Notes: generated from the letters alone by a model not told the origin. 64,000 nucleotides of DNA from Candidatus Cloacimonetes bacterium 4572_55 (GCA_002084765.1 NBMB01000031.1:3821-67820); one strand, 5' to 3'; positions 15,677 to 64,000 are shown, counted from the first letter of the stretch. Program-made: numbers and translations.

Positions 15677-16657
15677 TCAGGCGGATATTTTCGACAAATG
15701 GCAACTGACCGCATGATCCGGATCCACTTCTCTAAGCTCTGGCGGGACCTCTTTACACTCAGGCTTGACAAAGGGGCAACGGGGATGAAAATGGCATCCA
15801 GATGGCGGATCTGCAGGACTGGGCACATCGCCCCGTAAGATAATCCGCGTACGCTCTAAATCTGGATTCGCTACCGGAATCGATGAAAGCAGGGCTTTGG
15901 TGTAAGGATGACGCGGATCCGCATACAACTTCTGACTTTCGGTAATCTCGACAATTTTGCCGAGATACATGACCGCCACCCGCGTGCTGATATGCTTAAC
16001 CACGCTGAGATCATGCGCAATAAATAAATATGTCAGACGGAATTCTTTTTGCAAATCCTGAAGCAAATTAATAATCTGCGCCTGGATCGAGACGTCCAAA
16101 GCAGAGACCGGTTCGTCGCAGACAATAAACTTTGGATTCACGGATAAGGCTCTGGCAATACCAACCCGTTGACGCTGTCCCCCGCTGAACTCGTGTGGGT
16201 AACGCCGAGCATGAACCGGAGAAAGTCCGACAATCTCCAGCAGTTCCGCCACCCTCTTTTTGACCCCATCGCCGGAAGCCAATTTGTGGACTTTCAGTGC
16301 TTCTTCCAACATGCTTCCAATCGTGATGCGAGGATTCAGAGAACTGTAAGGGTCCTGAAAGATGATCTGCATCTCCCGACGCAGCGGACGCATCTGGCTA
16401 TGCTTCAGCATGGTCACCTCTTTGCCCGAGAATTCCACAAAACCAGAAGTCGGCTCGATCAAACGGAGGAGGCAGCGACCGGTCGTTGTCTTGCCGCATC
16501 CACTCTCGCCGACCAGGCCCAAGGTCTCTCCGGATCGGATATTGAAGCTGACATCGTCCACAGCCTTTACATAGCCGGCGATACGAGAAAAAAAACCCTT
16601 GCGAATAGGAAAATATTTTTTTAAATTTTTGATTCTTATCAAGTTATTATTCGACAT
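15677..16657 (-). CDS. Oligopeptide/dipeptide ABC transporter ATP-binding protein (OppF/DppF type)
   Basis: 326-aa ORF. Walker [10 protein letters not shown], signature [15 protein letters not shown], Walker [13 protein letters not shown], and the C-terminal oligopeptide-type extension [10 protein letters not shown]...CHFHPRCP. Confidence 0.9.
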
Positions 16658-27637: not shown

Positions 27638-27936
27638 TTTTTCCCCTTAACCCACCAAAACATCTCGGAATAAAAATCGTATAGATAGCCAATAATAAAA
27701 AAATGTCATTCAAAACGCTATTTTGAATTTTACCCTTTAAATTTCAAAGGCTTTTAAGCCTGAATTGCTGTGGTAAAAGTAGTCAATTTTTCTATATGAG
27801 GCAATAAGAATTTAACAGATGATTGAGGATCTTCGCTAAAATTTTTCGATCGCTAAAGAAACCCGAATCATAAAATCGGCATATTTATTGCTTTATCCAT
27901 GAAATAAAATAATCGAAAATTTTCGAGTAAATTTAT

Positions 27937-28161
27937 CCTGCATTATTCACAATCCTCGGGGAACCGGAGGTCTCAGATGTTTGATATTTAATGGGTTAAA
28001 GTCTATTTTTAACGACATTTCCAAGAGAACTCAGCTTCTATGAGAATTTCAGAACCCTTATTTGGGCTGACTCTAAAAAAAATATAATTCTTTAATTATC
28101 AAATCTTAATCTGCGATAATCTGCGTAATCTGCGGATCGATTTCCGTGATGACGAATAATC
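27937..28161 (+). repeat. Dispersed intergenic repeat element, copy 1 (225 bp), ending 25 nt before the propeller-kinase gene
   Basis: Near-identical to 37608-37906 except for a 74-bp indel. It contains 3 tandem TAATCTGCG(A/G) units at 28107-28135. The ends carry an imperfect inverted ATTATTC motif. Confidence 0.85.
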
Positions 28162-28186: not shown

Positions 28187-31100
28187 TTGTCTATGAGTAT
28201 TATCCAAAAAATTTCTTTTTTCACTCTCGGCGTTATGCTTCTGACGTCAAGCCGGTCGGTTTCCGCCGGCGAACAGCTCCACTTCGAGAAAATTGGGGTG
28301 CAAGACGGCTTGTCACAATCCTCAGTCTCCCATATTTACCAGGATCAGCTGGGTTTTATGTGGTTCGGCTCCGAGGATGGTCTGAACCGCTACGACGGTC
28401 ATGACTTCAAGGTATTCCGCAATAGTCCAATTGATTCGACAACGCTTTCCGAAAATCGAATCATCGGAATTTGGGAAGATGAAAGCAGCCGTTTATGGGT
28501 TGTGACGCAAAATAGAACTCTTCATAAATTTGACCGCCGATATGAGCGTTTCACCCGTTACACGTTACCGACCAATAGTATCAAAAATTTGTCAAGCATG
28601 TCGGAAAATTTACACTTTGGAACAGATGGGAACGGATTGTTGTGGATTTTGGAGGAGGGCATGTTGATCGCTTTTGATCCGGTTAGCGAAAAATCTCTGC
28701 TTATCAAATATGATCCTGACGATCCCAACCAGATCAATTCTCCCCAAATAAAAGCCATTTGCATCAGTCGCAAGGGTCACGTATGGGCAGCCTCCAACAG
28801 CGGTTTGAGCCGGGTCGTGGACTGCCGTATAGCGGAAGGAACCTATCAGGTCAAGACCTTCCGCCATAATCCCGACGATCCACATACGCTCAGTTCAGAC
28901 TCCCTCCGAGTGATACATGAGGATCAATCCGGTATGTTATGGGTTGCCACACGTCGCAGCGGGCTGAATCGGTTTGATCCAAATACAGGCAAAGCGACGC
29001 GTTTCCAACAGACCCCAGACGACTCGCTGAGCCTGAGCGATGATATTGTCCACTGCATCCAAGAGAGCCCAGAGGGGGATTTATGGATCGGTACCGAGTA
29101 TGGGCTGAATCGATTTGATACTGAGACCAATCAGTTTCATCGCTATTATCCGAATCTATCCATATCAGAAAATAGCGAGGAATGGATAAACAGGATCAGT
29201 TCTCTGCTTATCGATCAAACCGGCGGAGTGTGGCTTCTAATTAATCTTTTTGACAAAAAAGGAGTGGTCACTCTTTTTCAGCCGGAGAAGGAGCAGTTTC
29301 TCTATTATTTCCCGGAAGAAAACAACTCTTACAGTCCCACAGGTTTTTGCGAAATGATGTATCAAGATCAATCTGGTGCTTTATGGTTTGATGTAGGCAT
29401 TGATTTGAATAAGGTGAGCCTGACCCGCCAGAAATTTGCTCTGTATCGATCCGATCCTAATAAGCCAGAAGGGATGCCGACCAGCAGTGCATGGTCTATA
29501 TTTAAAGAGAAAGACCAAACCCTCTGGATCGGGACCTCAGAAGGGTTGAGTCGGCTGGATGAAAAGACAAAAAAATGGAAGACTTATACAAATAGCTCCG
29601 ATATATCCTATGGTATAAAGGACTTTTATTTTTCAAGAATTTTCAAGGATTCTAAAGATCGGATCTGGTTAAACGGGAGATCATCCGGTTTGTGTTCTTA
29701 TAATCCGCAGACTGACAGCTTTAAAAGCTATCCTTATATCACTTCAGACGGAAGGACGCTTACTCAATATTCCGCTTCTGGAATTTATGAAGATCGAGAT
29801 GGTGCGATCTGGGTCTGTGTGGCAAATTTTTTAAACCTATTTCATCCGGAAACGGGTCTTTTTACGCGCTATCCGATCTATAAAACTCCAGGCGACACTG
29901 CAAGTTCCCGGGTATTTCCTGGCGTAATTGTCGAAGATTCGGAGGAGATTCTTTGGTTAGGCTCTCGGTCGGGTTTATATGGATTTGACAAAACCGCCCG
30001 AGAAGTCACGTATGCTTTTCATCATAACCCTAAAGACGTCAACTCATTGAGCGATAATGTTGTTATGTCGGTATTTGAAGATAGCCGCGGAGACCTATGG
30101 GCAGGGACATGGGCGGGTCTCAATAAGTTGGACAAAGAGACCGGAAAATTCACCCGATACACCCAGGAAGACGGTCTGCCAAACGATTCAATTTATGGGA
30201 TTTTGGAAGATGAGAGAGGTCGCCTTTGGTTCAGCACGAATCTTGGACTCTCCTGCTTTGATACGGAAAGCGGCTCGTTTCGGAACTATGACATCAAAGA
30301 CGGTTTGCAAAGCAACGAATTTAATGCCGGCGTATTTCATAGGGCATGGGATGGGGAGATGTTTTTCGGCGGGATAGGCGGCATCAGCGCGTTTTATCCA
30401 TCGGATCTCCGGGATAATACCTATAAACCGCCAGTTGCTATCACTGCTTTCAAGAGATTTGACACTCCCGTTATTTTTGACCGACCTCTTGATCAAGTCG
30501 AACAGATCACATTTTCCTACAAAGACACCTACTTCAGCTTTGAATTTGTGGGGCTGGATTATAACGCGCCGGAAGAGGTGCAATACGCGTACATGCTGGA
30601 TGGACTGGATAACGAGTGGCGGAATTTGGGTTCTCGTCGGGCGATTTCGTTTCCCGGTCTGAAGAGCGGCGACTATACGCTGAAGATTAAAGCCGCAAAT
30701 AATGACGGGCTATGGAACGACGATCCGACGTCGGTCAAGCTGACTGTGGCACCGCCGCCCTGGCAAACCTTGTGGGCGTACTGCTTTTATGCGCTCTCGT
30801 TTGGCGGAATAATATTTGGCTATGTGCGCTTTCAAGCAAAAAAGCTGGAACAGGAGCGCATGGTCAATGAGCGATTGCGCCAGATCGACCATCTGAAAGA
30901 CCAGTTCCTCGCCAACACCTCTCACGAATTGCGCACACCCCTGAACAGCATCATCGGTATAGCGGAATCGCTCATTGACGGGGTTGCTGGAGAGCTGCCA
31001 AAACCCGCGATGTTCAATCTTTCCATGGTTGTGACCAGCGGCAAACGGTTGTCGCATCTGGTCAACGACATTCTCGATTTTTCTAAGCTGAGGAACAACG

Positions 31101-31966
31101 AATTGGTTCTCCACAAAAAGCCGATCGATATTCGGCAGATCGCCGAGATTATTTTGACCATTGTTCGGCTGTCGATGGGGCGGGATTCTATCGAACTACA
31201 CAATGATATTCCTGAGGAATTTCCCCCTGTGGATGGCGACGAAAATCGATTGCAGCAGATCATGTATAATCTGATCGGCAATGCGGTGAAGTTCACGGAA
31301 TCGGGCAAGGTGGCCGTATCGGGCGTGCATAGAAACGGCATGGTGGAAATTTTGATCACAGACACCGGCGTCGGAATCCAGAAAGAAAGGCTAAGGGATG
31401 TCTTCAAATCCTTTGAGCAGGCGGATGGATCGATCAGCCGAGATTTTGGCGGAACTGGATTGGGTCTGTCGATCACCAAGCAGTTGGTGGAGCTGCATGG
31501 CGGACGGATCTGGGTGGAATCAGAAGAGGGCAAAGGCTCTTGCTTTACGTTTACGCTGCCGGTCAGCGGAGAGAAATCTGTCCAGAAAGACGATCTCAAG
31601 GATCAGTTGGGCAGATTGCAGGAGGACATGCTGTCTATTGGATCGGTGCCATCGAGCCCCTTGCCCTCAAGCTCGAACTCCTTGCCAAAAAAATCTATAG
31701 TAAGCCACGCGGGCGTAGACCCTCGATTGCAGCCGGTTGAGACCCAGTTTAATTTGCTGATCGTTGACGACGAGCCGGCAAATGTGCAGGTCTTGATCAA
31801 CCACCTCTCGCTGCATCGTTATAATGTGACCAAAGCCTTGAGCGGTCAAGAGGCTCTCGGTCTGGTGGAAAATGGACATAAATTCGATCTGGTCGTGCTG
31901 GATATTATGATGCCGCGCATGTCGGGATTTGAGGTCTGCCGCCGTCTAAGGGAAAAATTCGCATGA
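28187..31966 (+). CDS. Hybrid sensor histidine kinase: beta-propeller repeats + Y_Y_Y + TM + HisKA/HATPase + start of receiver; prematurely terminated by a tandem duplication
   Basis: 1259-aa ORF. Repeated ...D..G.LW.GT..GLNRFD... propeller blades. [16 protein letters not shown] (Y_Y_Y). H-box [37 protein letters not shown]. Receiver [11 protein letters not shown]...[14 protein letters not shown]. The stop is created at the duplication junction. Confidence 0.85.
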
Positions 31967-32020
31967 TGCCGCGCATGTCGGGATTTGAGGTCTGCCGCCG
32001 TCTAAGGGAAAAATTCGCAT
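31907..32020 (+). repeat. Perfect 56-bp tandem duplication (2 copies) inside the receiver domain coding sequence
   Basis: atgatgccgcgcatgtcgggatttgaggtctgccgccgtctaagggaaaaattcgc occurs at 31907-31962 and again at 31963-32018. 56 is not divisible by 3, so TGA forms at 31964-31966. Confidence 0.95.
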
Positions 32021-32280
32021 CCAGCGAGTTGCCGGTGGTGCTGCTGACCGCAAAAAATCAAGTGACCGATCTGGTTACCGGATTTGATTCTGGGGCAAAC
32101 GATTATTTGACTAAGCCCTTTTCCCGCAGCGAGTTGTTGGCTCGCATCAAGACGCACATCAATCTTGCCAAGATCAACGCGGCTTATGGGCGTTTTGTGC
32201 CGCATCAATTCTTGAATTACCTGCAAAAAGAGCATTCGATCCTTTACATCCATATCGGAACAGATGACTCCAGAGGATAA
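31963..32280 (+). pseudogene. Receiver-domain C-terminal fragment (out-of-frame continuation of the hybrid kinase)
   Basis: 105-aa [65 protein letters not shown] is the rest of a REC domain. The tail ...FVPHQFLNYLQKEHSI is the usual linker into a class III cyclase, and the frame is then lost. Confidence 0.8.
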
Positions 32281-33001
32281 CTTTAAGTTTATCAACGATT
32301 ATCTGAGCCGCATGGAGCCGATTATCGAGCAGCATAACGGATTTATCGACAAATATATCGGCGATGCGATTATGGCACTGTTCGGAGGATCGTCAAACGA
32401 TAGTGAGGAAAAGGTTACAAGCGCGGACGACGCGCTACAGTCCGCTATATCAATGCTGCGTCGTCTGGCGAAATATAATCAAACTCGCCGGAAGATAGAA
32501 CAACCTCCGATCAAAATAGGGATCGGACTGAACACCGGCATGTTGATGTTGGGAACGGTCGGTGGCGAAAAACGAATGGATGGAACTGTGATCTCGGACG
32601 CTGTCAATCTGGCTTCCAGAGTCGAGGGCATGACAAAAGTGTATGGCGCGAATTTGCTTATCACCAACGAAACCTACTCGACTTTGGATGATCCCAGCGC
32701 ATATTGCATCCGCATTATCGACCGAGTAAAGGCGCGGGGGAAAAACGAACCTGTCACAATCTTCGAGGTTTTTGATGGAGATTCGGAGGAAATGATTCGT
32801 CTCAAAAAGCAAAATTTGTATGAATTCGACAGGGCGGTAAGCTTGTATCGAGAACAGAAATTTGATCACGCGGCAAAGGGTTTCAAAAAGGTGGTAGCGG
32901 CAAACCCGGGTGATCAAGCCGCTCAGGTCTATATTCAAAGATGCGAATATTATCAACTGCACGGCGTGCCGGAAGGATGGGATAACGCGAAGATATTGTG
33001 A
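32264..33001 (+). pseudogene. Class III adenylate/guanylate cyclase catalytic domain, N-terminally truncated fragment
   Basis: 245-aa ORF whose frame is open from 32216 (ITCKKSIRSFTSISEQMTPEDNF...). FIDKYIGDAIMALFG, GLNTGMLMLGTVGG, GTVISDAVNLASRVEG and a C-terminal TPR-like tail. The strand carrying the first metal-binding Asp is missing. Confidence 0.8.
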
Positions 33002-36548: not shown

Positions 36549-37607
36549 GTGAATATTAACGATTTACTCATATTCTCCACGAACGCGGGTGCTTCGGATT
36601 TACACCTGAGTTCCGGATCCTCGCCTATGGTGAGAGTGCATGGGCGAATGCGAAGGATTAATCTGCCGCAAAAATTGAGCGATGAAGATATTCAGAAGAT
36701 GATTTTATCTGCGCTCAATGAAGAGCAGTTGGAGAAATTCAAACGCGTCAAAGAAGTCGATTTCTCAAAAGAGATCAAAGGTGTGGCTCGTTTTCGAGTC
36801 AATGTATTTCAGCAAATTCGGGGCATAGCCGGCGTATTTCGAACAATTCCTGAGGAGATACGCACTTTTGAAGAGTTGGGTCTGCCGGATGTGTTGAAAT
36901 CTTTGTGTCTGAAGGAGAAGGGGCTCATTTTATTGACCGGTCCGACCGGTAGCGGTAAATCAACCACATTAGCAACAATGGTGGATCATATTAATGAAAA
37001 TCGAGAATGCCACATCATCACTATTGAAGACCCGGTCGAATTTTTCCATCATAGCAAAACTTCTCTGATCAATCAGCGAGAGGTGGGGGACTCAACACAC
37101 TCATTCTCGAATGCGTTGCGAGTGGCTCTTCGGGAGGACCCCGACGTAATTCTCGTGGGCGAAATGCGGGATTTGGAAACGATTTCGTTAGCCTTGACCG
37201 CGGCGGAGACAGGTCACTTAGTCTTGGCAACTCTGCACACGAGTAGCGCGGCAAAAACTATTGATCGCATCATTGATATTTTCCCGAAAGAGCAGCAATC
37301 GCAAGTGCGGTCTATGCTCTCGGAATCGTTAGAGGCGGTTCTCTCTCAAAAACTCTTGCCAACAAAGGATGGAAACAGTCGGGTGGTAGCCTGCGAGTTA
37401 CTTATCACCACGACTGCGGTGCGGAATTTGATCCGAGAAGAGAAAATTTATCAAATTCCATCGGTCATTCAAGCCGGGAGCAAGATGGGTATGCAGACCC
37501 TGGACCATGATTTGAGCCGTTTGGTTATGGAAGGAAAAATCGATCGTATGGAAGCGGCGCAGCGAGCGGATAATCCCAAGTTGTTCGATACTGCCGGCAT
37601 GTTCTAA
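36549..37607 (+). CDS. pilT: Type IV pilus retraction ATPase PilT
   Basis: 352-aa ORF with GTG start. ASDLHL, GPTGSGKSTTLA, DPVEF, ILVGEMRDLETI and GHLVLATLHTSSA. Confidence 0.9.
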   Translation: MNINDLLIFSTNAGASDLHLSSGSSPMVRVHGRMRRINLPQKLSDEDIQKMILSALNEEQLEKFKRVKEVDFSKEIKGVARFRVNVFQQIRGIAGVFRTIPEEIRTFEELGLPDVLKSLCLKEKGLILLTGPTGSGKSTTLATMVDHINENRECHIITIEDPVEFFHHSKTSLINQREVGDSTHSFSNALRVALREDPDVILVGEMRDLETISLALTAAETGHLVLATLHTSSAAKTIDRIIDIFPKEQQSQVRSMLSESLEAVLSQKLLPTKDGNSRVVACELLITTTAVRNLIREEKIYQIPSVIQAGSKMGMQTLDHDLSRLVMEGKIDRMEAAQRADNPKLFDTAGMF

Positions 37608-37906
37608 CCTGCATTATTCATAATCCTCGGGGAACCAGAGGTCTCATATGTTTGATATTTAATGGGTTAGATTCGATTTTTAACGACATTTCCAAGAGAA
37701 CTCAGTTCTTATGAGAATTTCAGAACCCTTATTTAGGCTGACTCTGCGACTCTCTGTGACTCTGTTGCGAATATAGTGAAATGCGCGCAAAAGCTCCATT
37801 TCCCTGAAGAAAATTTGGCAAAAAAGATATAATTCTTTAATTATCAATTCTTAATCTGCGATAATCTGCGTAATCTGCGGATCGATTTCCGTGATGACGA
37901 ATAATC
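37608..37906 (+). repeat. Dispersed intergenic repeat element, copy 2 (299 bp), starting on the first base after the pilT stop codon
   Basis: Collinear with 27937-28161 with few mismatches, plus a 74-bp extra segment at 37746-37819. The TAATCTGCG triple repeat is at 37852-37880. Confidence 0.85.
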
Positions 37907-45364: not shown

Positions 45365-45550
45365 GATACTCGACTTGTTTGGGGCTTACTGAAATGCATT
45401 AAGAGGTAAGGGAGGTGTTAATAAAAAAAAATAGAAAATTTTTTTCGTCTCATCATTTCCCGGCATAAATTTTTATTTCTTATCCTGCTGTTCACAGTGA
45501 TTCTAAACGTCCTAACGGGTAGTGCAATTATTTGTTTTGAATGTATTAAA

Positions 45551-45610
45551 TCCCATCAATTCCTATCAATTCCTATCAATTCCTATCAATTCCTATCAAT
45601 TCCCACTAAT
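45551..45610. repeat. 10-bp tandem repeat TCCTATCAAT (4 perfect + 2 degenerate units) immediately upstream of the RBS of the Ig-like lipoprotein gene
   Basis: tcccatcaat tcctatcaat x4 tcccactaat read directly. The AAGGAGG RBS is at 45615-45621 and the ATG at 45627. Confidence 0.9.
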
Positions 45611-45626
45611 ATATAAGGAGGGGAGC

Positions 45627-54336: not shown

Positions 54337-57300
54337 ATGAAGCTATTGATCGATACTAAAAACCGAATGGTTAATAATTATATAAAAAAATTAAATATAA
54401 AATTCAAAACGGGTATTTCGACGGAACACTCGTATAGAGGCGATTTGCAAATTCTTTTGGAATCATTATCTGATGACGTGCTTGTGACCAATGAGCCAAA
54501 GCGCATTAAATGTGGCGCGCCGGATTATATCATTACCGAAAACAATATTCCGATTGGATATATCGAGGCAAAAGATATCGGCGCGTCCCTTAAGAAGACA
54601 GATAAGACCGAGCAGTTGAAACGCTATAAAGCCAGTTTAGATAATCTGATTTTAACCGATTATCTGGATTTTTGGCTCTATCGTGGCGGAAAATTCATCA
54701 CTTCGGTTGCTATCGCCGAAATATCAGGCGGCAAACTCACTCCCCTGGCACAAAATTATCAGGATTTTGAAGACCTGATCCTGAATTTTTATACGCATAC
54801 GGGTCAATCGATCAAGTCGGCTCAGAATTTGGCTGAGATGATGGCCGGCAAAGCGCGCATGATGCAGGCGGTGATTGACAAGGCTTTGTGCAGCGATGTG
54901 CAGGATTATCAAAACAGCTCTCTGAAAGACCAGATGGAGGCTTTCAAACGCATTCTGATCCATGATATCACGCCTTCCGAATTTGCCGACATTTATGCGC
55001 AGACCATTGCTTACGGCATGTTTGCTGCCCGTTTGAACGATCCGACTCTCGATGATTTTTCCAGGCGGGAAGCCGCTGAGCTGATCCCTAAAACCAATCC
55101 GTTTTTAAGACGGCTTTTCGGCTATATTGCCGGACCTGACATCGATGACCGCATCTTATGGATTGTGGACGCTTTGGCCGATATTTTCCGAGCAACAGAC
55201 GTGGCGGCAATCATGCATAATTTTGGCAGCTCCACGCAGATGAATGATCCGGTCATCCATTTTTACGAAACTTTTCTGGCAAAATACAATCCCAAACTCC
55301 GTAAAAGCCGGGGGGTCTGGTACACGCCCGAACCTGTGGTAAATTTCATTGTGCGGGCTGTAGACGATATTTTGAAAACCGAATTCGACCTGCCCCAGGG
55401 CTTGGCTGATACATCGAAAGTGCAGATCAATGCCCAGGGCGTCGCAGGCAAAGTCAAAAAAGATGTGCATAAAGTGCAGATTCTCGACCCCGCGACCGGC
55501 ACCGGCACCTTTCTTGCCGAAGTGATTAAGCAGATTCACAAGAAATTCAAAGGGCAGCAAGGTATCTGGAGCAGGTATGTGGAAAAGGAGCTGATTCCGC
55601 GCCTGAACGGTTTTGAAATTCTCATGGCTTCGTATGCCATGGCCCATCTAAAGTTAGATATGCTGCTGCGCGAAACCGGATACAAACCGAAAAATGAGAA
55701 TCGTTTCCGCGTGTTTCTGACCAACAGCCTCGAAGAAGCGCACCCTGATAGTGCTACCCTTTTTGCCACTTGGCTTTCGCAAGAGGCGACCGAGGCAAAT
55801 CAGATTAAGCGGGATACGCCGGTGATGTGTGTGATCGGGAATCCGCCTTATGCGATAAGTAGCAGTAATAAGGGTGATTGGATAGACAGTTTGATGAATG
55901 ATTATAAAAGAGGACTAAAAGAAAGAAATATACAGCCTTTATCTGATGATTATATAAAGTTTATAAGGTATGCACAGTATTTTATTGAAAGGAATAAGGA
56001 AGGAATTTTAGCATTTATTACAAACAACAGTTTTTTAGATGGTGTAATACACAGAGTTATGCGAAAAAGTATTTATAAATGTTTTGACAAAATTTATATT
56101 ATAGACCTTCATGGTAGCTTGAAACGAAAGGAAATTGCACCTGACGGTTATCCAGATGAGAATGTGTTTGATATTCAACCGGGAGTTTGTATTTTAATTT
56201 TTATTAAAAAAAAAGGCATAAAAAAATCAATAAATATATATGACCTTTTGGGGAAAAGAAAAAATAAATACGCTTTTTGTAATAAGGAAACACTCTCATC
56301 TATTAACTGGAAAACTTTCATAATAGACAGAACAAACCATCTTTTTAAATATATTGATAATGATATTAAAAAGTTATATGATAAATATTTGCCTGTCATT
56401 AACTTAATACCTTTTAAAACAAGTGGTATTAAAACGCATGGTGACTCATTCCTGACTAACTTCAGTTTAAATGAATTACGTACAAGTGTCACTGATCATT
56501 TTAATAAATTGGATTATAACCCTGAGCATGAAGAATTATATTGTTACCGACCTTTAAATATAAAATGGTTGTATAATGACTCTGAGTTGATAGGCCGATC
56601 AAGAAAAAAAACAATCTATCATTTAAAATATGACAATGTAGGTATTATACTCGTAAGACAATCACAGGTTATAAGCACAGAAATTTTTAGTGCTGTGTTT
56701 ATCACAAAATGCCTTACAGATACAAATATGTTTCGAAGGGGTGGGCCGCTTGTATTTCCACTCTATTTATACCCGCCGGAAAGCAATGAACAACAAACAT
56801 TTGATGATAAGAAAGAACGTAAACCCAATCTTGACGCGGACATAGTCAAACAAATCGCAAAATCTCTACAACTGACCTTTACCACTGAAAAAGAGGCAAC
56901 AAAAAACACCTTCGCCCCCATTGACATCCTCGACTACATCTACGCGGTTTTGCATTCCCCATCCTATCGCGAAAAATACAAAGAATTTCTGAAAATAGAC
57001 TTCCCGCGCGTCCCCTATCCGAAAAACAAAACTGTTTTCTGGCAACTTGTCACACTCGGCGGGGAACTCCGGACCATTCATCTGCTGGAAAATCCCATAG
57101 TCGAACAATATATCACAACCTATCCCGAAGATGGCGACAATATCGTCACGCGCCGTATCGTTAAAAAAGATTATGAGATCACGGATACGGCAAATCAGAC
57201 AGGGCACGTCTGGATAAACGCCCAACAATATTTTGGCGACGTTCCTCAAGCGGCTTGGGACTTTTATATCGGGGGGTATCAGCCCGCCAGAAAATGGCTG

Positions 57301-57420
57301 AAAGACCGGCGTGGCAGAGAGCTTGCTTTTGAGGATATTTTGCATTATCAAAAGATCATCGTCGCGCTGACCGAAACTGATAGAATTATGAAATGTATTG
57401 ATCTAATTGACTTTTCTTGA
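54337..57420 (+). CDS. Single-polypeptide Type IIG-like restriction-modification enzyme (PD-(D/E)XK-like N-terminus + gamma-class N6-adenine MTase + specificity region)
   Basis: 1027-aa ORF. GAPDYIITENNIPIGYIEAKDIG (D-x13-ExK). Motif I ILDPATGTGTFL. Motif IV VIGNPPYA. C-terminal DILDYIYAVLHSPSYREKYKEFLKIDFPRVPYP is typical of Type ISP/IIG-related enzymes. Nuclease activity is inferred only. Confidence 0.8.
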   Translation: MKLLIDTKNRMVNNYIKKLNIKFKTGISTEHSYRGDLQILLESLSDDVLVTNEPKRIKCGAPDYIITENNIPIGYIEAKDIGASLKKTDKTEQLKRYKASLDNLILTDYLDFWLYRGGKFITSVAIAEISGGKLTPLAQNYQDFEDLILNFYTHTGQSIKSAQNLAEMMAGKARMMQAVIDKALCSDVQDYQNSSLKDQMEAFKRILIHDITPSEFADIYAQTIAYGMFAARLNDPTLDDFSRREAAELIPKTNPFLRRLFGYIAGPDIDDRILWIVDALADIFRATDVAAIMHNFGSSTQMNDPVIHFYETFLAKYNPKLRKSRGVWYTPEPVVNFIVRAVDDILKTEFDLPQGLADTSKVQINAQGVAGKVKKDVHKVQILDPATGTGTFLAEVIKQIHKKFKGQQGIWSRYVEKELIPRLNGFEILMASYAMAHLKLDMLLRETGYKPKNENRFRVFLTNSLEEAHPDSATLFATWLSQEATEANQIKRDTPVMCVIGNPPYAISSSNKGDWIDSLMNDYKRGLKERNIQPLSDDYIKFIRYAQYFIERNKEGILAFITNNSFLDGVIHRVMRKSIYKCFDKIYIIDLHGSLKRKEIAPDGYPDENVFDIQPGVCILIFIKKKGIKKSINIYDLLGKRKNKYAFCNKETLSSINWKTFIIDRTNHLFKYIDNDIKKLYDKYLPVINLIPFKTSGIKTHGDSFLTNFSLNELRTSVTDHFNKLDYNPEHEELYCYRPLNIKWLYNDSELIGRSRKKTIYHLKYDNVGIILVRQSQVISTEIFSAVFITKCLTDTNMFRRGGPLVFPLYLYPPESNEQQTFDDKKERKPNLDADIVKQIAKSLQLTFTTEKEATKNTFAPIDILDYIYAVLHSPSYREKYKEFLKIDFPRVPYPKNKTVFWQLVTLGGELRTIHLLENPIVEQYITTYPEDGDNIVTRRIVKKDYEITDTANQTGHVWINAQQYFGDVPQAAWDFYIGGYQPARKWLKDRRGRELAFEDILHYQKIIVALTETDRIMKCIDLIDFS
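57373..57414 (+). repeat. Direct repeat, left copy (3' end of the R-M ORF)
   Basis: gaaactgatagaattatgaaatgtattgatctaattgacttt matches 59187-59229 with 1 mismatch and 1 indel. Confidence 0.9.
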
Positions 57421-57436
57421 GAATGGAGATAAATAA

Positions 57437-58504
57437 ATGATTGACTCATTTTCTATTAAAGGGTTTAAACAATTCACAGATTTGTTTTTGCAGGGTTTGA
57501 AACCGATAACCTTGATAGGCGGTAAGAACAACACCGGCAAAACAACAGTCCTTGAAGCACTTTTCATGCTTTATGACAGGGGCAATGCGGGAGTCACTAT
57601 GCGTCATCTTTTTTGGAGAGGCGTGGGCTCGATACCCCTTAATCCGGATTCGCTCTGGTCTCCGATTTTTCGTTCCTACGATATGAATAAGCCGATTGAA
57701 ATGAAAATCTGTGAAAATGGCATAACTGAAAAGATTGAGATAGAACATAAGAACGAATTTAAAACGCTCCTCTCTGCTTCGCCATTTGAAAAAGGCTCCC
57801 TGCCCAAAATTGAGACAGGCCAGCGCCCATTGATGACTGAATTCCTTGAATTCCGTTATTTTGCCAATGATAAAAAGACGGGGGAATCTTTCTTGACGCT
57901 TGGGGATCGCAAGTTAGATATGCAGTATAGTTTTAGCAAACCATCAAAAAAAATCGCTTTCATCGGTTCAGGCTTGCACCACAATTCGGTGGAGGATTCG
58001 GTGCTCTTCGGACAGTTGGATATTCAGGGGCATACGGAAAAGATCACAGAGGTTTTGAAAATCATTGAGCCGAATCTGAAGTCCCTGAGAACCATTTCTC
58101 ACGGAGAACACGCGTTGATTTATGGGGATATCGGCTTACAGCGCAAAATTCCAGTCGCCCACATGGGAGGGGGAGTGGCAAAAGTGCTTTCAATTTTTCT
58201 ATCCATCGCTACCAATGCTGGCGGAATCGTTTTAATTGACGAAATTGAAAACGGATGGCATTATTCATGTCTTCCCAACATATTGAAAGCGATTCATAAA
58301 ATGGCAAAGGAGTATAATTGTCAGATCATTGCGACAACGCATAGCTATGAAATCGGTCAATCACTGATAAAAGGGTTATCTCCTGAAGACCTATCGGATT
58401 TGGCTTATATAAGGCTTGATAAGACAAAAGAGCGTATAAAGCCGCATGTTTATGAAGCCCGAATGTTGGCTGCTGCTTTGGAAAGAAGATGGGAGATAAG
58501 ATAA
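57437..58504 (+). CDS. ABC/SMC-type AAA ATPase (AAA_21/AAA_15-like), OLD-family-type ATPase module
   Basis: 355-aa ORF. Walker A IGGKNNTGKTT, signature-like HMGGGVAK, Walker B IVLIDEIENGWH, H-loop IATTHS. It starts 16 nt after the R-M stop, behind a GGAG RBS. Confidence 0.8.
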   Translation: MIDSFSIKGFKQFTDLFLQGLKPITLIGGKNNTGKTTVLEALFMLYDRGNAGVTMRHLFWRGVGSIPLNPDSLWSPIFRSYDMNKPIEMKICENGITEKIEIEHKNEFKTLLSASPFEKGSLPKIETGQRPLMTEFLEFRYFANDKKTGESFLTLGDRKLDMQYSFSKPSKKIAFIGSGLHHNSVEDSVLFGQLDIQGHTEKITEVLKIIEPNLKSLRTISHGEHALIYGDIGLQRKIPVAHMGGGVAKVLSIFLSIATNAGGIVLIDEIENGWHYSCLPNILKAIHKMAKEYNCQIIATTHSYEIGQSLIKGLSPEDLSDLAYIRLDKTKERIKPHVYEARMLAAALERRWEIR

Positions 58505-59205
58505 TGGAAAATAAAGATCGTATTCTTGTTGACAAAGAAAATTTGGATACCTCGGAAGTTATTGACAAAGACAATTTGCTGATCGTGGAAGGTAAGGATG
58601 AGATCGGTTTTTTTGAAGCACTTTTGGCGCATATCAATGCTGAGGATAAAGTTCAAATTGTCCCGGTTGGCGGAAAGGACCAGTTTAAAAATGAATTTCC
58701 AACACTTCTCGAAAGCCCGAACTTTTCAAGAGTCAAGAGCTATGGGATTGTAAGGGACGCGGATGACAATGCTGATAATACATTTCAAAGTGTGCAAGGA
58801 CTGTTGCGTCGGTATGATCAGCCAATCCCGCAAGCGTCGGGGGAAATTATATCCTTGAATGGTGTCGCCACAGGCGTTTTTATTATGCCCGGTAACTCAG
58901 AAGAAGGCATGTTGGAAAATTTGTGTCTCAAGACGGTTGATGATCATCCTGTGTCCGATTGTGTGGATAAGTATATCGACTGTCTACATAAAACATTGGA
59001 GCATAGGGAAAAAAATACACCTAAAGACCCGAACACGTATTATTTCCCTAAGAATGAAGCAAAAGTAAAAATGTATGCTTTTTTAGCCGGTATGAACACC
59101 TACATACCCAGTTTGGGAATTGCCGCCAAGAAAGGGTATTTTAATCTTAATTCAGAAATTCTCGATGATATCAAAGCGTTTTTGCAGAAACTGATAGGAT
59201 TATGA
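58504..59205 (+). CDS. Small Toprim-like protein (DUF3226/DUF4435-type by motif memory), partner of the ATPase
   Basis: The start MENKDRILV overlaps the ATPase stop as TAATG. LLIVEGKDEIGFF (Glu), IVPVGGK and GIVRDADDNAD (DxD) form a Toprim-like acidic pattern, followed by IMPGNSEEGMLENLCL. 233 aa. Confidence 0.65.
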   Translation: MENKDRILVDKENLDTSEVIDKDNLLIVEGKDEIGFFEALLAHINAEDKVQIVPVGGKDQFKNEFPTLLESPNFSRVKSYGIVRDADDNADNTFQSVQGLLRRYDQPIPQASGEIISLNGVATGVFIMPGNSEEGMLENLCLKTVDDHPVSDCVDKYIDCLHKTLEHREKNTPKDPNTYYFPKNEAKVKMYAFLAGMNTYIPSLGIAAKKGYFNLNSEILDDIKAFLQKLIGL

Positions 59206-59229
59206 GAATGTATTGATCTAATTGACTTT
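59187..59229 (+). repeat. Direct repeat, right copy (overlaps the stop of the Toprim-like gene)
   Basis: gaaactgataggattatgagaatgtattgatctaattgacttt. Confidence 0.9.
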
Positions 59230-59263
59230 ATCGCGTAATTTGCGGAAAAAAAAGGAGAGTTCT

Positions 59264-59872
59264 ATGCGAATCAAGCTCATGTTTTTCATCCTCATGGGGA
59301 TGACGATCCCATCTGCACTTCATGCAGGCGCACATATTCAAGTCTCACTTCTTGGCGGAGTTTCCAACTACAGCGACGGGATATTATCCGTTGATAAAAG
59401 GCTGCCGCATATCCCTTCCGGCGGCGTGGGCTTCACTATTGGCATGAGGTCTTCGGTAGACCTTGGCCTGAATTTTCGTTATAGCTCTGATTCATTCACG
59501 TATTCTCCCGATCTCTTCGCGATGCCGGATCAAAGCGTCGAGTCTATCGATTTTAGCGATACTGCCGTGGATGTGTCCGGTTTATACAAATTTTATCAAC
59601 CGGAAAGTCGGACGATCACGGCTTATATCGGCGGAGGGGCTGGCGTCTGTTTCATCAGCTTGGATAGCGACAAATTGAACGGCGTAACCGAAGATCTTGA
59701 TAAAAAGTCCTTCTCTACTTTGCATGCGATAGCCGGATTGCGATTTAAGCTGGCTGTTTTTCCTGCGGCAATCACGATTGAAGGGCGTTACTCTTCATTT
59801 AAAATAAGTGAAGAAACCATTGGCGTGCATTCTATTAATGCGGGAATCTCATTTTACCTTTACAACTCATGA
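59264..59872 (+). CDS. Outer-membrane beta-barrel protein (OmpW/OmpA-beta-like, small)
   Basis: Preferred start is MRIKLMFFILMGMTIPSALHAGA (signal peptide) behind an AAGGAGAG RBS. Alternating amphipathic beta strands, e.g. AYIGGGAGVCFISL and ITIEGRYSSFKI. Confidence 0.55.
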   Translation: MRIKLMFFILMGMTIPSALHAGAHIQVSLLGGVSNYSDGILSVDKRLPHIPSGGVGFTIGMRSSVDLGLNFRYSSDSFTYSPDLFAMPDQSVESIDFSDTAVDVSGLYKFYQPESRTITAYIGGGAGVCFISLDSDKLNGVTEDLDKKSFSTLHAIAGLRFKLAVFPAAITIEGRYSSFKISEETIGVHSINAGISFYLYNS

Positions 59873-60008
59873 GTTTTTCACTGTGTACTCGATTTCATAT
59901 TTGAAAAACCCAATTTTTTAAATATTAGTGAAACTAAGTATTTTTAATACCTTCCCATTTTTCTTGAATTTCTCAGGCTAATATCAGGCTAATAAAGGAA
60001 AAAGGCTC

Positions 60009-63000
60009 ATGTATAAAAAGTCCCTTTTTTTTCTGCTATCCTTCATTATCCCCATCTTCATTATTCCTATCAGCCTTGAGGCGCAGCACTTCCCTTTTAA
60101 TGTCTATACGACGCAAGACGGATTGCCTGTCAGCCAAGTATGGACAGTCCACCAGGCATCAAACGGTTACATCTGGATCGGAAGCTACGGCGGCGGCGTG
60201 ACCCGTTTCGACGGATACAACTTCGAGACTTTCATGCGTCGTCACGGACTTGCGCATAATATGGTTCATACCATTTATGAAGACAGCATTGGTCGTCTAT
60301 GGTTCGGCACATTGGGCGGCGGTATTTGCTATTGGGACGGTCGTGAATTTGTGACCTTTAACAAGGATAACGGTCTGCCTGGCAATACGGCACTGTCGAT
60401 ATGCGAGGATCGGGAAGGCACTATTTGGATAGGCTTAAGCGAAAAGGGTCTTGCCTGTTGGGACGGAAAGACATTTCGATCGGTCACGCCGGATCCTGAC
60501 CAAAATATCTCCATTTTTTCTGTGCAATCTCTCTGCCTTGATAAGGATCAACGGTTATGGGTTGGAGCAAATTCAGGGCTTTATCTATACGACGACGGGC
60601 GTTTCTATGACTACACCGACTCTCTAAGTTATCCGCCAGACGTCCCCCGGAAGACCGTGATTCATCTCTATCAAGATCGAAGCGGGAAGATGTGGGTATG
60701 CACTTGGAGCCACGGTATCCATATTTTTGACGGGAACGATTTTTATCAATTGCCCTATCTTGACACATTAAAAGGCAATGTGGTATGGCAAATTCTTGAG
60801 GATAGTTCAGGCTCTTTTTGGTTTGCCTCCGACGATCTTTACTATTATGACGGAGAGAATCTGAATCGTTTCAGCCATAAGCAGGGTTTGGCAGAAGGCG
60901 TGGTTCGCGGCTTGATAGAGGATCACGAAGGAAATATTTGGATCGCGTCTTATGGGGGTGGATTGACGAAAAAAGGACGGATGCTATTTGTTTCGTATAC
61001 TGAGGAAGATAATCTGGTTGATAAAAATATCACAGCGATTTGTGAATTTGACAGCGGGGCTTATCTTTTCGGCACGGCAAACAGCGGCATTATCGGGATG
61101 CTTCAGAATGATGCGAGTCAATTGAATCCTCATATCAGTTGTATAAAAAAAGACGATACCGGCGATATCTGGATCGGAACCCGAGGCGGGGGGATCGGGG
61201 TGATAAAGGAAAACAAGTTGACGGATATTTTGAACTCGGAACACGGGTTTCTTTCAAACTATGTCAACGAGATATTTATTGATTGGGACGGTATGATCTG
61301 GGTCGCTACGGAAGAGGGTCTGTACTACGTGGATCCGACCACTTATGAGGCGGAGCGGATCACAGATCTGATGTCAATAAACGATGTGATCCGTGATGAT
61401 GAGGGTCGCTTATGGGTTGGATGTTCTCGAGGGCTGGCGATTGTTGATGAAGAAGACAAAACATATCAACTTTTCTCGACTGCGGACGGTCTATCGGATG
61501 ATTATATCACCTGTTTAGAGATAGATAAAGATGGGAATTTATGGATCGGTTCTTCATACGGGGTAAGTTTTTATCATAACGGGACTTTTTCTGTTCCGGA
61601 GTCGCTGATCGATCCTCTTTATGGCAAGATCAGCTTTATTCAATTCAGTTGGGACGGGAATATCTGGTTTGGCGCGTCTCACGGCGTCTATCGTTATCAA
61701 CCCGATAAGGAAAAATTGATACATTACACCACCCACTCTGGATTAGCTGGAGACGAGACCAATCCAGGCGCGGTTTATATCGATAGCGAAGGCTATCCCT
61801 GGTTCGGAACCACTCAGGGAGTTTCCTGCTTCAATATCGAGAGCGACAAAAAAAACGCGCTGCCCTCACCGCCGGTTTATATTGAAAATTTTCAAGTATT
61901 TGGGAGGGATTATTTTCATCCCAGAGCCAGCAGTCAGTCACTTGCCATCAGATCTCGGATAAAATCCCGATCCGCCACGCAGGATGCTGTTTTTTTTGAG
62001 AAAGCCGGAGCAAATATCACCAAAGATCATCACCAAATATTGGATCATACCCAACACTATTGCGCGTTTGAATTTATTGGCTTGTGTTATTCCAACCCCA
62101 ACTCGATTTTCTATCAATATCGTCTGAAAGGGTTGAATGATGAATGGATCACGACCCGACATCAATATGTGGCATACTCCAACTTGGCCCCCAACTCCTA
62201 CACCTTTCAGGTCAAAGCCGCAAATAGCGACGATGTGTGGAGCGAAGAGCCGGCGCAGTTCAGCTTTACTATCAAGGCGCCCTGGTGGAAAATGATTTGG
62301 TTCCGGTTCGTTCTTATATCTCTGGTCGTTGTCGGCGCGCCGACATTCTATCTGTATCAGATTCAGCGGATAAAAACCAAAAATGCAATGGAATTGGAGC
62401 GAGAGAAAGACAATCTGGAAAAACGCCGTTTAAAGGAAGAACTGGATCGGGCACGCGTGGTGCAGACGTCTATGCTGCCGACAGAAGACCCGGTTGTTCC
62501 AGGATTTGATATTGCCGGAATGTCCAGACCCGCGACCGAGGTGGGGGGGGATTATTATGATTTTGTCTGGCAAAAAAGCGGACGCTCGCCCCAAAGTCGA
62601 GATCAGGCACCGCCGCTCCATATTATTATCGGCGACGTGGCTGGACACGGTATGTCCAGCGGTCTGATCGTCTCTATGTGCAAAAGCTGCGTCTATATGT
62701 ATAACCAAGTCAAAAAGAAACCGGAGCCAGCTCTTGCCCTACAAGAGTTGAATAAGATGATTATCCGCACATCAAAGGAGCGCTTGTTGATGACGTGCGT
62801 GTATGCCAGACTGGATATAAATAATCGCGATATCCTATTCTCTTCCGCGGGTCATCCCTTTCCTTTTCATTATAAGGCGGCTGAAGACCGGATCGATGAA
62901 ATCGAGCTTTGTTCGTTCCCATTGGGTGTGCCAGAAGCGGAATTTCAGCAGAAAAAAATCCACTTGAATTGCAACGACGTGATCCTGTTTTACACGGATG

Positions 63001-63197
63001 GAATTGTGGAGCATTTCAATCCAAAAAGAGAGATGTTCGGCTTTGATCGATTGGAACGCGGACTGAAGGAAAATGCGCATTTGTCAGCCGCCACCCTCCG
63101 AGATCGATTGCTGGAAGCGGTTGAAGAATTCTCTGAAGGAAATCCGCAAGATGATGATATTACATTGGTTGTGATAAAAGTAAAGAGAGAGAAATAA
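60009..63197 (+). CDS. Beta-propeller/Y_Y_Y sensor fused through a TM helix and coiled coil to a PP2C/SpoIIE phosphatase
   Basis: 1062-aa ORF. Propeller blades (QDGLPVSQVW...YIWIGSYGGGVTRFDG etc.). Y_Y_Y (IFYQYRLKGLNDEWI...YTFQVKAAN). A TM helix. GGDYYDF, IGDVAGHGMSSG, YTDGIVEH and DDDITLVVIKV. Confidence 0.85.
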   Translation: MYKKSLFFLLSFIIPIFIIPISLEAQHFPFNVYTTQDGLPVSQVWTVHQASNGYIWIGSYGGGVTRFDGYNFETFMRRHGLAHNMVHTIYEDSIGRLWFGTLGGGICYWDGREFVTFNKDNGLPGNTALSICEDREGTIWIGLSEKGLACWDGKTFRSVTPDPDQNISIFSVQSLCLDKDQRLWVGANSGLYLYDDGRFYDYTDSLSYPPDVPRKTVIHLYQDRSGKMWVCTWSHGIHIFDGNDFYQLPYLDTLKGNVVWQILEDSSGSFWFASDDLYYYDGENLNRFSHKQGLAEGVVRGLIEDHEGNIWIASYGGGLTKKGRMLFVSYTEEDNLVDKNITAICEFDSGAYLFGTANSGIIGMLQNDASQLNPHISCIKKDDTGDIWIGTRGGGIGVIKENKLTDILNSEHGFLSNYVNEIFIDWDGMIWVATEEGLYYVDPTTYEAERITDLMSINDVIRDDEGRLWVGCSRGLAIVDEEDKTYQLFSTADGLSDDYITCLEIDKDGNLWIGSSYGVSFYHNGTFSVPESLIDPLYGKISFIQFSWDGNIWFGASHGVYRYQPDKEKLIHYTTHSGLAGDETNPGAVYIDSEGYPWFGTTQGVSCFNIESDKKNALPSPPVYIENFQVFGRDYFHPRASSQSLAIRSRIKSRSATQDAVFFEKAGANITKDHHQILDHTQHYCAFEFIGLCYSNPNSIFYQYRLKGLNDEWITTRHQYVAYSNLAPNSYTFQVKAANSDDVWSEEPAQFSFTIKAPWWKMIWFRFVLISLVVVGAPTFYLYQIQRIKTKNAMELEREKDNLEKRRLKEELDRARVVQTSMLPTEDPVVPGFDIAGMSRPATEVGGDYYDFVWQKSGRSPQSRDQAPPLHIIIGDVAGHGMSSGLIVSMCKSCVYMYNQVKKKPEPALALQELNKMIIRTSKERLLMTCVYARLDINNRDILFSSAGHPFPFHYKAAEDRIDEIELCSFPLGVPEAEFQQKKIHLNCNDVILFYTDGIVEHFNPKREMFGFDRLERGLKENAHLSAATLRDRLLEAVEEFSEGNPQDDDITLVVIKVKREK

Positions 63198-63277
63198 CTC
63201 TGTTCATTCTCTTCCCAAAACCGATTTGACACGGAAATTTGAAAGCCTGATCCCCCCATAACTTTCGGAGCATTGTC

Positions 63278-64000
63278 ATGCACCTATTACTGGTTGAGGA
63301 CAACCCAAAACTGCGACCCGCGCTAAAGCAGGGTCTGGAGAATACTGGAAAAGTCACAGTCATCTATGACTGCGACAGCGGCGAAGAGGCTCTGGAGTTC
63401 TGCCTGGACGCGGCGTCGCGTTTCCCGCTGGAGGGCTTATCCTGCCGGATACCGGACGTGATCTTGACGGATGTTCAGCTTGCCGGAAAATTGAACGGTA
63501 TTGAGGAGGCAGTGGCTGTTCGTCGAGAATTTCCCAGAATGCCGGTCGTGTTCTATTCGATCCAGGATGACGACCGATATTATCGGGACTTCCGCGAGTC
63601 CGGGATATTGAGCCATTACGCATACGTGCGAAAATCCAACTATCTCCTGCCGAACATGATTGTCCCCCTGCTGAAAGACGTCCTTCTGGGTCGCAGCTTC
63701 ATCGACCCCGACATTGAGTCCAGAGTTCAAGAGGTTCGTCACAAAGACAACAATTCGCCATTTGCCATATTGGAACCCAACGAGCAGAGGGTGGCTCAGA
63801 TGCTGGCAAAGGGTATGACCAACAAGCAGATCGCCAGGCGATTCGGCTTTCGTGATAAGCGCACTATCAGTCGGGTCAATGGGCAGATATACGCGGCTTG
63901 GGGATTAAACGAGACCGCTACTGATGAAAAGGTGGCTCGCACCCGAGCCGCGATTATTGTGCATGAAGGAAGGCTGATCCAATGGGACGAAAATGGTGCT
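63278..64000 (+). CDS. NarL/LuxR-family response regulator (REC + HTH), 3' end beyond window
   Basis: Not in the ORF track because it has no stop. My translation from ATG 63278 is MHLLLVEDNPKLRPALKQGL...DVILTDVQLAG...LEPNEQRVAQMLAKGMTNKQIARRFGFRDKRTISRV (LuxR HTH), open to 64000. Confidence 0.8.
   Translation, partial: MHLLLVEDNPKLRPALKQGLENTGKVTVIYDCDSGEEALEFCLDAASRFPLEGLSCRIPDVILTDVQLAGKLNGIEEAVAVRREFPRMPVVFYSIQDDDRYYRDFRESGILSHYAYVRKSNYLLPNMIVPLLKDVLLGRSFIDPDIESRVQEVRHKDNNSPFAILEPNEQRVAQMLAKGMTNKQIARRFGFRDKRTISRVNGQIYAAWGLNETATDEKVARTRAAIIVHEGRLIQWDENGA

Follow-up and report, generated by a model that had tools for sequence, protein, structure and literature searches.

The last 42 nucleotides (nt) of a restriction-modification (R-M) gene are present twice in a 64,000-nt stretch of DNA from Candidatus Cloacimonetes bacterium 4572_55 (GCA_002084765.1, NBMB01000031.1:3821-67820; hereafter the window). 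The two copies now flank a 1.77-kb unit of two genes, encoding an ATPase and a DUF3226 protein of the OLD-type Toprim nuclease kind, and the R-M open reading frame (ORF) is kept intact by the left copy. The likely explanation, in our view, is that a defence unit of two genes, with no promoter of its own, entered the R-M gene a few bases 5' of its stop codon by insertion with long target duplication, a class of rearrangement defined for R-M units by Furuta et al. 2010 (PMC2853133).

The left copy of the repeat (57373-57414, + strand, 42 nt) reads GAAACTGATAGAATTATGAAATGTATTGATCTAATTGACTTT and forms the functional 3' end of the R-M ORF, where it encodes ETDRIMKCIDLIDF and ends 3 nt 5' of the stop codon. 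The right copy (59187-59229, + strand, 43 nt) reads GAAACTGATAGGATTATGAGAATGTATTGATCTAATTGACTTT, and overlaps the last five codons and the stop (59203-59205) of the DUF3226 ORF. The copies differ by one substitution (A57384 versus G59198) and one extra base in the right copy (G59206), and align over 43 columns with 95.3% identity (blastn-short, E-value 2e-12). The alignment bears out the first-pass annotation of this DNA, which had described 42/43-bp direct repeats with one mismatch and one extra base, the second lying over the stop of a Toprim-like gene and the pair enclosing precisely a two-gene cassette: the 1,772 nt between them consist of a 22-nt leader and two overlapping genes. An exact 23-mer (57392-57414 = 59207-59229) occurs twice in the window, with no occurrence expected from 100 shuffles. 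There is no third copy within the 64-kb window, and on that scope the repeat is a unique sequence present in exactly two copies, not a dispersed one. Folding of both copies predicts no secondary structure (z +0.4 and +0.6), and Tandem Repeats Finder returns nothing for 57000-59600. As a positional null, 400 segments of 1.77 kb were drawn at random from comparable loci, and the 600 nt on one side of each were compared with the 600 nt on the other; the best match has a median of 19.9 bits and a single segment of the 400 reaches 40 bits, versus 66 bits for the window pair. An independent Logan assembly of run SRR6301447 (locus L122) is 100% identical to positions 57642-64000 of the window and reproduces the right copy, including the mismatch and the extra G, which makes an artefact of one assembler unlikely.

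The R-M gene (54337..57420, + strand), the target of the insertion, encodes a single polypeptide of 1027 amino acids (aa) that combines an N6 methyltransferase domain with a Type ISP C-terminal specificity domain, as expected of a Type IIG/Type ISP-like enzyme. Pfam assigns Type_ISP_C (PF18135, 2.8e-75), N6_Mtase (PF02384), MmeI_Mtase (PF20473) and Eco57I (PF07669), and PADLOC reports REase_MTase_IIG with E = 0. The 120 best R-M homologues have in common the C-terminal motif HYQKIIVALTETDRxMKEIDKIEx, and members of the family end 0-3 residues past an ...IDxIxF motif. The left copy encodes this family-consensus C-terminus (...ETDRIMKEIDKIEF...), and is therefore the working 3' end of the gene. 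The present protein ends ...DFS* (the asterisk denotes a stop), its last codon and stop (TCT TGA) being supplied by the first bases of the insert. The right copy is frameshifted by its extra G; without that base, and continued into positions 59230-59238, it translates to ETDRIMKCIDLIDFIA*, a complete family-typical tail with an in-frame stop placed as in relatives. These nine nucleotides, ATCGCGTAA (59230..59238, + strand), would represent the original last two R-M codons and stop (...DF-IA*), orphaned by the insertion. The right copy together with the following 9 nt is the old, displaced end of the R-M gene. The next gene (59264..59872, + strand) is known from the ORF list and encodes an outer-membrane beta-barrel-like protein of 202 aa, with a weak OMP_b-brl match in the precomputed annotation of L122; it would have directly followed the R-M gene before the insertion.

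The insert itself (57415-59186) contains a leader with a ribosome-binding site (RBS), the ATPase gene and the DUF3226 gene, and nothing else. The leader, TCTTGAGAATGGAGATAAATAA (57415..57436, + strand, 22 nt), forms the left end of the inserted unit; the only element common to the leaders of related cassettes is an RBS-like AAGGTAA..ATG. The ATPase (57437..58504, + strand, 355 aa) belongs to the ABC/AAA_15-AAA_21 type (Pfam AAA_15 1.5e-21, AAA_21 3.9e-19), has both Walker A (GGKNNTGKTT) and Walker B (IVLIDEIE) motifs intact, and matches the PADLOC models AbiLi (9.6e-54, residues 1-355 on profile positions 1-340), PDC-M38A (2.8e-45) and AriA (4.4e-24). Its stop codon overlaps the start of the DUF3226 gene (TAATG), which encodes 233 aa from this ATG (58504..59205, + strand) in an ORF open from 58489. 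The DUF3226 protein matches PF11536 (DUF3226, 3.8e-35) and OLD-like_TOPRIM (4.2e-5) in Pfam and PDC-M38B (1.4e-16) in PADLOC, and its acidic Toprim residues, E29/D32/E33 and D85-A-D87 (D85xD87), are invariant in 29 relatives. The AlphaFold model of the protein (predicted local distance difference test score, 90.8) finds its best PDB matches in the C-terminal Toprim regions of OLD nucleases (6njx, 6njv and 6nk8; E 2.5e-4, TM-score 0.45-0.50); a PDB sequence search with the DUF3226 profile gives weak matches only. The PADLOC model for AbiLii matches neither cassette protein, and the AriB model matches the DUF3226 protein at E 6.6e-4 over residues 30-93 only, with no Pfam DUF4435 match. Taken together, the full-length AbiLi/PDC-M38A match, the Toprim residues and the OLD-like fold identify a split OLD-family pair of the AbiL, PARIS or RloAB type, and PADLOC classes the cassette as the candidate system PDC-M38. 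The 5' end of the DUF3226 gene also carries an imperfect in-frame tandem duplication of 33 nt (58526-58591, 76% identity), which encodes LVDKENLDTSE/VIDKDNLLIVE in place of the single IEKDNLLLVE of relatives.

None of the usual instruments of mobility accompanies the unit. There are no integrase, transposase, recombinase or prophage genes in the insert, and domain scans reveal no integrase or recombinase domain in the neighbouring ORFs. Terminal inverted repeats are absent from the cassette ends (57415-57440 and 59150-59190). The window's unit has no attC site: it contains no RYYYAAC...GTTRRRY cores and no predicted structure (z +0.57), and its DUF3226 ORF abuts the R-M tail copy. In the 16 nt that separate the R-M stop from the ATPase start, neither a promoter nor a terminator is predicted; from this gap, the RBS of the unit and the lack of a predicted terminator, the cassette is probably transcribed by read-through from the R-M gene.

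The right junction of the insert lies at the 3' end of the DUF3226 gene. Close DUF3226 relatives end natively in ...DIKxFLQKLxA*, as in TTTTTGCAGAAATTAGTGGCATAA. The end of the window gene reads TTTTTGCAGAAACTGATAGGATTATGA and, unlike the relatives, follows the R-M tail (ACCGAAACTGATAGAATTATGA) from GAAA onward. The last five DUF3226 codons and the stop (KLIGL*) are read from the right copy in a frame other than that of the R-M gene, and the native ...FLQKLxA* ends of the relatives indicate that they derive from the R-M tail. The last few codons of the gene were thus lost, and its ORF finishes inside the duplicated tail. The junction appears to lie at a microhomology of 4-7 nt, GAAA(CTG), which the DUF3226 gene in its native form (...TTTTTGCAGAAAtta...) would have had in common with the R-M tail (ACCGAAACTGAT...). 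In another cassette locus, L041, the DUF3226 ORF likewise runs into the right copy of a flanking repeat of ~85 nt.

To place the window among its relatives, we examined 86 loci encoding DUF3226 relatives; 51 cassette loci (~45 independent) have both flanks and could be compared flank against flank. The pair of ATPase and DUF3226 genes recurs in unrelated surroundings, most of them housekeeping: between rpoD and tsaE, within an ABC-transporter operon, in the hfq tail, and between glnA and a sugar kinase gene. Strong flanking direct repeats are found in 5 of the ~45 independent loci, compared with the 1 of 400 random 1.77-kb segments (Fisher p = 4.8e-5). Besides the window (43 nt, 95% identity), these are L041 (~85 nt with an indel, intergenic, with a 37-nt core of 95%), L080 (94 nt, 89%, the 3' end of an FGGY kinase gene), L034 = L035 (120 nt, 87%, the 3' end of an ABC_tran gene and the first 11 codons of ABC2_membrane) and L109 (170 nt, 88%, the 3' part of hfq). 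In three of the four sibling loci the repeat consists of part of a neighbouring gene, with one copy residing in the intact gene and the other being a truncated, decaying remnant. All five repeats consist of the respective local target sequence, span ~40-170 nt and have no common core. For L034 an empty site is available: L123, from the same metagenome (ABC_tran 81% identical), contains a single copy of the 120-nt target, to which both L034 copies align, and its two ABC genes overlap (ATGATAAATAA). The proposal, made when the window was first read, that the repeats are the footprint of a cassette inserted into the R-M tail is upheld by the consensus C-terminus in the left copy, the tail restored from the right copy once the G is removed, the mobile relatives with their locus-specific duplications, and the one empty site.

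Comparison of closely related cassettes delimits the moving unit. The cassettes of L103 and L115 share 98% identity across 1,817 nt and have no similarity outside this block, which starts 12-14 nt 5' of the ATPase ATG and ends exactly at the DUF3226 stop codon. The same tight-block pattern is seen in L076/L109 (85%) and L031/L038 (86%). Near-identical cassettes in unrelated surroundings indicate that what moves is an RBS with two ORFs, without terminal sequences of its own; the 22-nt leader in the window fits such a bare RBS-to-stop unit. The leaders and 3' ends of 12 relatives have only the RBS and the ...FLQKL coding end in common. Neighbouring genes tend to be co-oriented with the cassette (upstream in 26 of 38 cases, downstream in 26 of 35), as would fit a unit that has no promoter and relies on read-through.

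Other contexts of the pair were also encountered. Integron attC-like cores (GTTAGGC ... GCCTAAC...GGTTAG) flank the cassette relatives in L044 (~3960-4075), L040 (43-125 and 1832-1900) and L063 (52-130 and 2258-2320), with a strong hairpin 3' of the stop codon in L044 (z -4.6), and the pair apparently circulates as an integron cassette as well. A distant pair (~26% identity) is the sole cargo of small ColE1-type non-mobilizable plasmids, namely L121 (NZ_CP024435.1, 4167 bp; the 4.2-kb Klebsiella type) and ~130 other small Klebsiella/Escherichia plasmids; these distant forms are the only relatives of the cassette that were found on plasmids. No DUF3226 match was found among 50,697 phage records. 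Insertions with repeats, attC-like contexts and small plasmids together imply that the pair travels by several routes. One sampled community (ENA ERZ23491059, JGI 3300005264, run SRR6301447) is the source of L034/L035/L036, L118/L119, L122 and L123. Given this shared origin, and since L122 is identical to part of the window, at least two different DUF3226 cassettes are present there in different organisms, along with the empty-site relative.

The view from the R-M gene was obtained from 30 loci encoding R-M homologues in the genome collection, 21 of which have a downstream flank that we scanned for duplicates of the tail. By tblastn, the cassette proteins are absent from all 30 of these loci and the window's R-M family is absent from all 86 cassette loci, so that the adjacency of the two is unique to the window among the 116 loci examined. 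One of the 21 loci, L001, contains a second tail copy (L117, from a 98.6%-identical strain, represents the same event). In these two Desulfococcaceae genomes an orphan R-M tail remnant, KIMKRIDKIKFM* (L001 9464-9503, corresponding to L117 ~16573-16610), is located 5.4 kb past the stop of the resident R-M gene and starts within ~10 nt of the position in the tail at which the window repeat starts. The cargo between gene and remnant consists of two promoterless-looking hybrid histidine-kinase genes that follow the R-M stop after an 18-nt gap. The remnant is a second, independent event on the same R-M tail, with non-defence cargo. The further idea of the first-pass annotation, that the R-M tail may serve as a docking site for swapping defence modules, is not supported by these comparisons: R-M homologues and cassettes do not meet in either set, the other cassette targets are unrelated, and the one comparable remnant brackets histidine-kinase genes. 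A search for an empty site or for other cargo at the window locus itself returned nothing, the nearest R-M relative being at 71% and a look-up of the barrel protein returning only L122.

Two further features of the R-M genes were observed. The GC content at 55900-56800, inside the window's R-M gene, is 27-29%, compared to 45-50% in the remaining gene; this low-GC stretch lies where the target-recognition domain of a Type IIG enzyme would be located, which suggests an exchanged specificity domain. In L118 (7051-15550), an R-M homologue (P0005), an unrelated second Type IIG gene and three small ORFs are found between dctP and dctQ/dctM of a tripartite ATP-independent periplasmic (TRAP) transporter. 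Their position between these genes indicates that R-M genes themselves have been inserted in an operon; no flanking repeats were found around this island.

Under the favoured reading, insertion with long target duplication, the course of events at the window locus could be as follows. The R-M gene would initially have ended ...DFIA* and been followed by the barrel gene at 59264. The insertion would have swapped the last two R-M codons and stop, replacing IA* by S*. The joining would have been illegitimate and not site-specific, either by microhomology-assisted ligation into a staggered break or by replicative template switching, and the right junction at the microhomology would have removed the last few DUF3226 codons. 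The right copy would afterwards have decayed in place by one substitution and one 1-nt insertion. Looping-out of the cassette between the repeats is possible in principle, and the 23-nt stretch of identity could serve RecA-type recombination that removes it and restores ...DFIA*. It had been anticipated that recombination would leave an R-M ORF ending ...ETDRIMRMY*; this outcome requires a crossover to the left of the extra G, within identical blocks of 7 or 11 nt, whereas the 23-nt block on its right gives ...KCIDLIDFIA*. As the longest identical block lies right of the extra G, the product ending ...DFIA* is most likely. Such a deletion product or empty site, if present, would have ...ATTGACTTT joined directly to ATCGCGTAA downstream of CGCGCTGACC, reading ...DFIA*, and the k-mer GACTTTATCGCGTAATTTGCGG preceded by intact R-M sequence is the mark to be sought in the same population.

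Of the alternatives, a Campbell-type integration survives best: a circle with the cassette and one R-M tail copy would enter by a single homologous crossover into the resident tail, and leave likewise. A donor arranged in the same way could yield the circle by looping-out, or a transformed fragment could have circularized. The order tail-cassette-tail is exactly the geometry of a single crossover, the two differences between the copies are what alleles of two strains could show, and homology of ~23 nt, the length of the perfect block, is near the minimum for RecA recombination. Furuta et al. propose a life cycle in which direct-repeat-flanked units invade, amplify via the repeats and are then released to new hosts (PMC2853133). 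However, a crossover merely moves the origin of the first tail-cassette joint back by one step, and it needs a donor with an R-M-cassette joint, of which there is none among the 30 R-M or 86 cassette loci. The mismatches in L034, moreover, concentrate in the parts of the copies no longer under selection, which fits decay in place and not two alleles. We regard this route as unlikely, yet keep it in consideration as the proximate step; if it were taken, there would be a circle-junction sequence with TTTTTGCA-repeat joined to TCTTGAGAATGG (DUF3226 3' end, repeat, ATPase leader).

A different possibility, which we consider a slim one, is that the pair of ATPase and OLD-type Toprim protein moves as a selfish element in its own right, autonomously, or else serves as the substrate for a dedicated pathway that has yet to be described. 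The bare RBS-to-stop unit would then be placed into widely staggered breaks, with duplications of 40-170 nt arising without a transposase, integrase, terminal repeats or att sites. If true, insertion with long target duplication would thereby gain its first defined machinery.

An unrelated rearrangement, such as a former tandem second R-M copy of which replacement or deletion spared no more than the last 43 nt, is improbable. The R-M family members P0010, P0012 and P0016 are possibly located together on one 31,068-nt contig, and L118 has two IIG genes in tandem; but the neighbour in L118 is of another, unrelated IIG family (22% identity) and its tail differs, which leaves the idea of a tandem R-M paralogue remnant unsupported. 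The right copy has 95% identity with the resident tail, and its two edges match the end of the DUF3226 ORF (left) and the continuation without the cassette (right); the cassette family, moreover, has target duplications at loci other than R-M genes.

Site-specific recombination, with the repeats as attL and attR of a small non-autonomous element, an integrase acting in trans and the R-M tail as its docking site, is more improbable still. Integration into the 3' ends of genes with the ORF reconstituted is typical of integrase-mediated elements, which the insertion into the rebuilt R-M end resembles, and the independent L001/L117 remnant starts at nearly the same position of the tail. Elements of this sort are treated as the alternative class in PMC2853133. 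Nevertheless, no integrase is found in or beside the insert, the sibling repeats are built each from its own local target in varying lengths and with no common core, the repeat has no attC-like structure, the cassette is not found with the R-M family elsewhere, and the L001/L117 cargo consists of histidine kinases. At the level of the family this reading is largely refuted. Hardly credible, finally, is a right copy created from mis-joined reads: the source is a metagenome assembly, but the Logan assembly is exact through the right copy, and the copies are non-identical, each lying within an intact ORF.

Several points also weigh against insertion with long target duplication as the explanation of the window locus. 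There is no empty site or related genome for this locus, and the protein clusters of the R-M, ATPase and DUF3226 proteins comprise the source contig only; target duplication is thus deduced here from the anatomy of the locus and from its siblings. The right-junction microhomology is short (4-7 nt) and hinges on the pre-insertion sequence of the cassette. Approximately 40 of the ~45 cassette loci have no flanking repeat, and other routes (attC-like contexts, small plasmids) therefore also move the unit. The defence function of the cassette and its co-transcription are predictions.

The window contains other repeats, located away from the cassette. A second long direct repeat (27934-28161 versus 37605-37906; 228 versus 302 nt, 9.67 kb apart) is ~94% identical outside a 74-nt indel. 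It is non-coding and includes three AATCTGCG motifs. Between its copies lie a cyclase ORF and genes for a hybrid sensor kinase, an M42 peptidase, a pilin-like protein and a PilT-like ATPase. A further rearrangement of the long-duplication kind, or the reuse of a regulatory region, could account for it. Within the sensor kinase ORF (28187-31966, 1259 aa), the receiver domain carries a perfect tandem duplication of 56 nt (31907-32018) that shifts the frame, and the next ORF (32264-33001) encodes a guanylate/adenylate cyclase domain. This duplication is either a recent disruptive event or an assembly error. A tandem array of about six 10-nt units, TATCAATTCC, is located at 45544-45613.

The arrangement agrees with the rearrangement class described for R-M units. 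As defined, the class comprises short inserts without mobility genes, flanked by direct repeats of >30 bp that duplicate a unique target, often over the 3' end of a gene, with 46-bp cases in H. influenzae (PMC2853133, where Nobusato et al. 2000 is cited as ref. 37 as an earlier source of the class). In the window, repeats of 42/43 nt immediately flank the insert, which at 1,772 nt is far below 20 kb and lacks integrase, transposase and prophage genes; a single copy at an empty site is found for the sibling L034 only, in L123. The variable length of the repeats and a nuclease-based defence or addiction cargo are further points of likeness. The insert does not contain R and M homologues, a criterion that belonged to the R-M screen of Furuta et al. 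and not to the rearrangement: the cargo here is an ATPase and Toprim pair, and the R-M gene is the target instead of the passenger. Insertion sequences and other DNA transposons differ in having terminal inverted repeats, a transposase and short duplications of 2-15 bp as opposed to 42 nt. Integron cassettes resemble the unit in being promoterless, compact, co-directional RBS-to-stop units expressed from upstream, and some relatives (L040, L044 and L063) do have attC-like cores; the window unit, however, has no attC, and integron recombination gives no 42-nt target duplication.

The cassette likewise has known counterparts. [quoted passage not shown] The best structural matches of the DUF3226 model include 6NJV, which is also the structure reported as a match for AbiLii (PMC13064643). 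The pair appears to differ from PARIS in that the partner of the ATPase is a DUF3226 and not a DUF4435 protein, with only the marginal AriB match noted above. PARIS cleaves tRNA after sensing anti-restriction proteins. RloAB is listed alongside AbiL and PARIS (PMC13064643), and the overlapping rloA and rloB genes lie inside the hsd island of Campylobacter (PMC2928727), likewise an abortive-infection-type module with an ATPase (and Toprim) inside or beside an R-M locus. The rlo genes, however, reside in Type I hsd clusters at a position conserved across strains, in contrast to the single-polypeptide Type IIG/ISP gene of the window and an adjacency unique to it. By analogy with PARIS (PMC11464382) and RloAB (PMC2928727), the cassette may act as an abortive-infection backstop beside the R-M enzyme. 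The searchable literature contains no mention of DUF3226 and no description of insertion with long target duplication for defence systems other than R-M. Rearrangements of this kind and cassettes of this kind have each been described before; as far as this literature shows, what is new is their combination, and a cassette family that moves as a bare RBS-to-stop unit and leaves long target duplications time and again.

For R-M systems, insertion with long target duplication has been on record for more than 20 years, and its mechanism has never been explained. The same footprint now appears for a nuclease-based defence pair other than R-M, in at least five independent events at unrelated targets and with one empty site. 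The 1.8-kb two-gene family therefore offers a compact and tractable model for testing the mechanism of insertion. RloAB and PrrC are embedded in Type I R-M loci of Campylobacter / E. coli, and the window presents a similar picture: an abortive-infection-type module that has come to sit directly behind an R-M gene, with which it is probably co-transcribed. The module most likely entered by a chance insertion at a 3' end that tolerated it, and not via a dedicated docking site.

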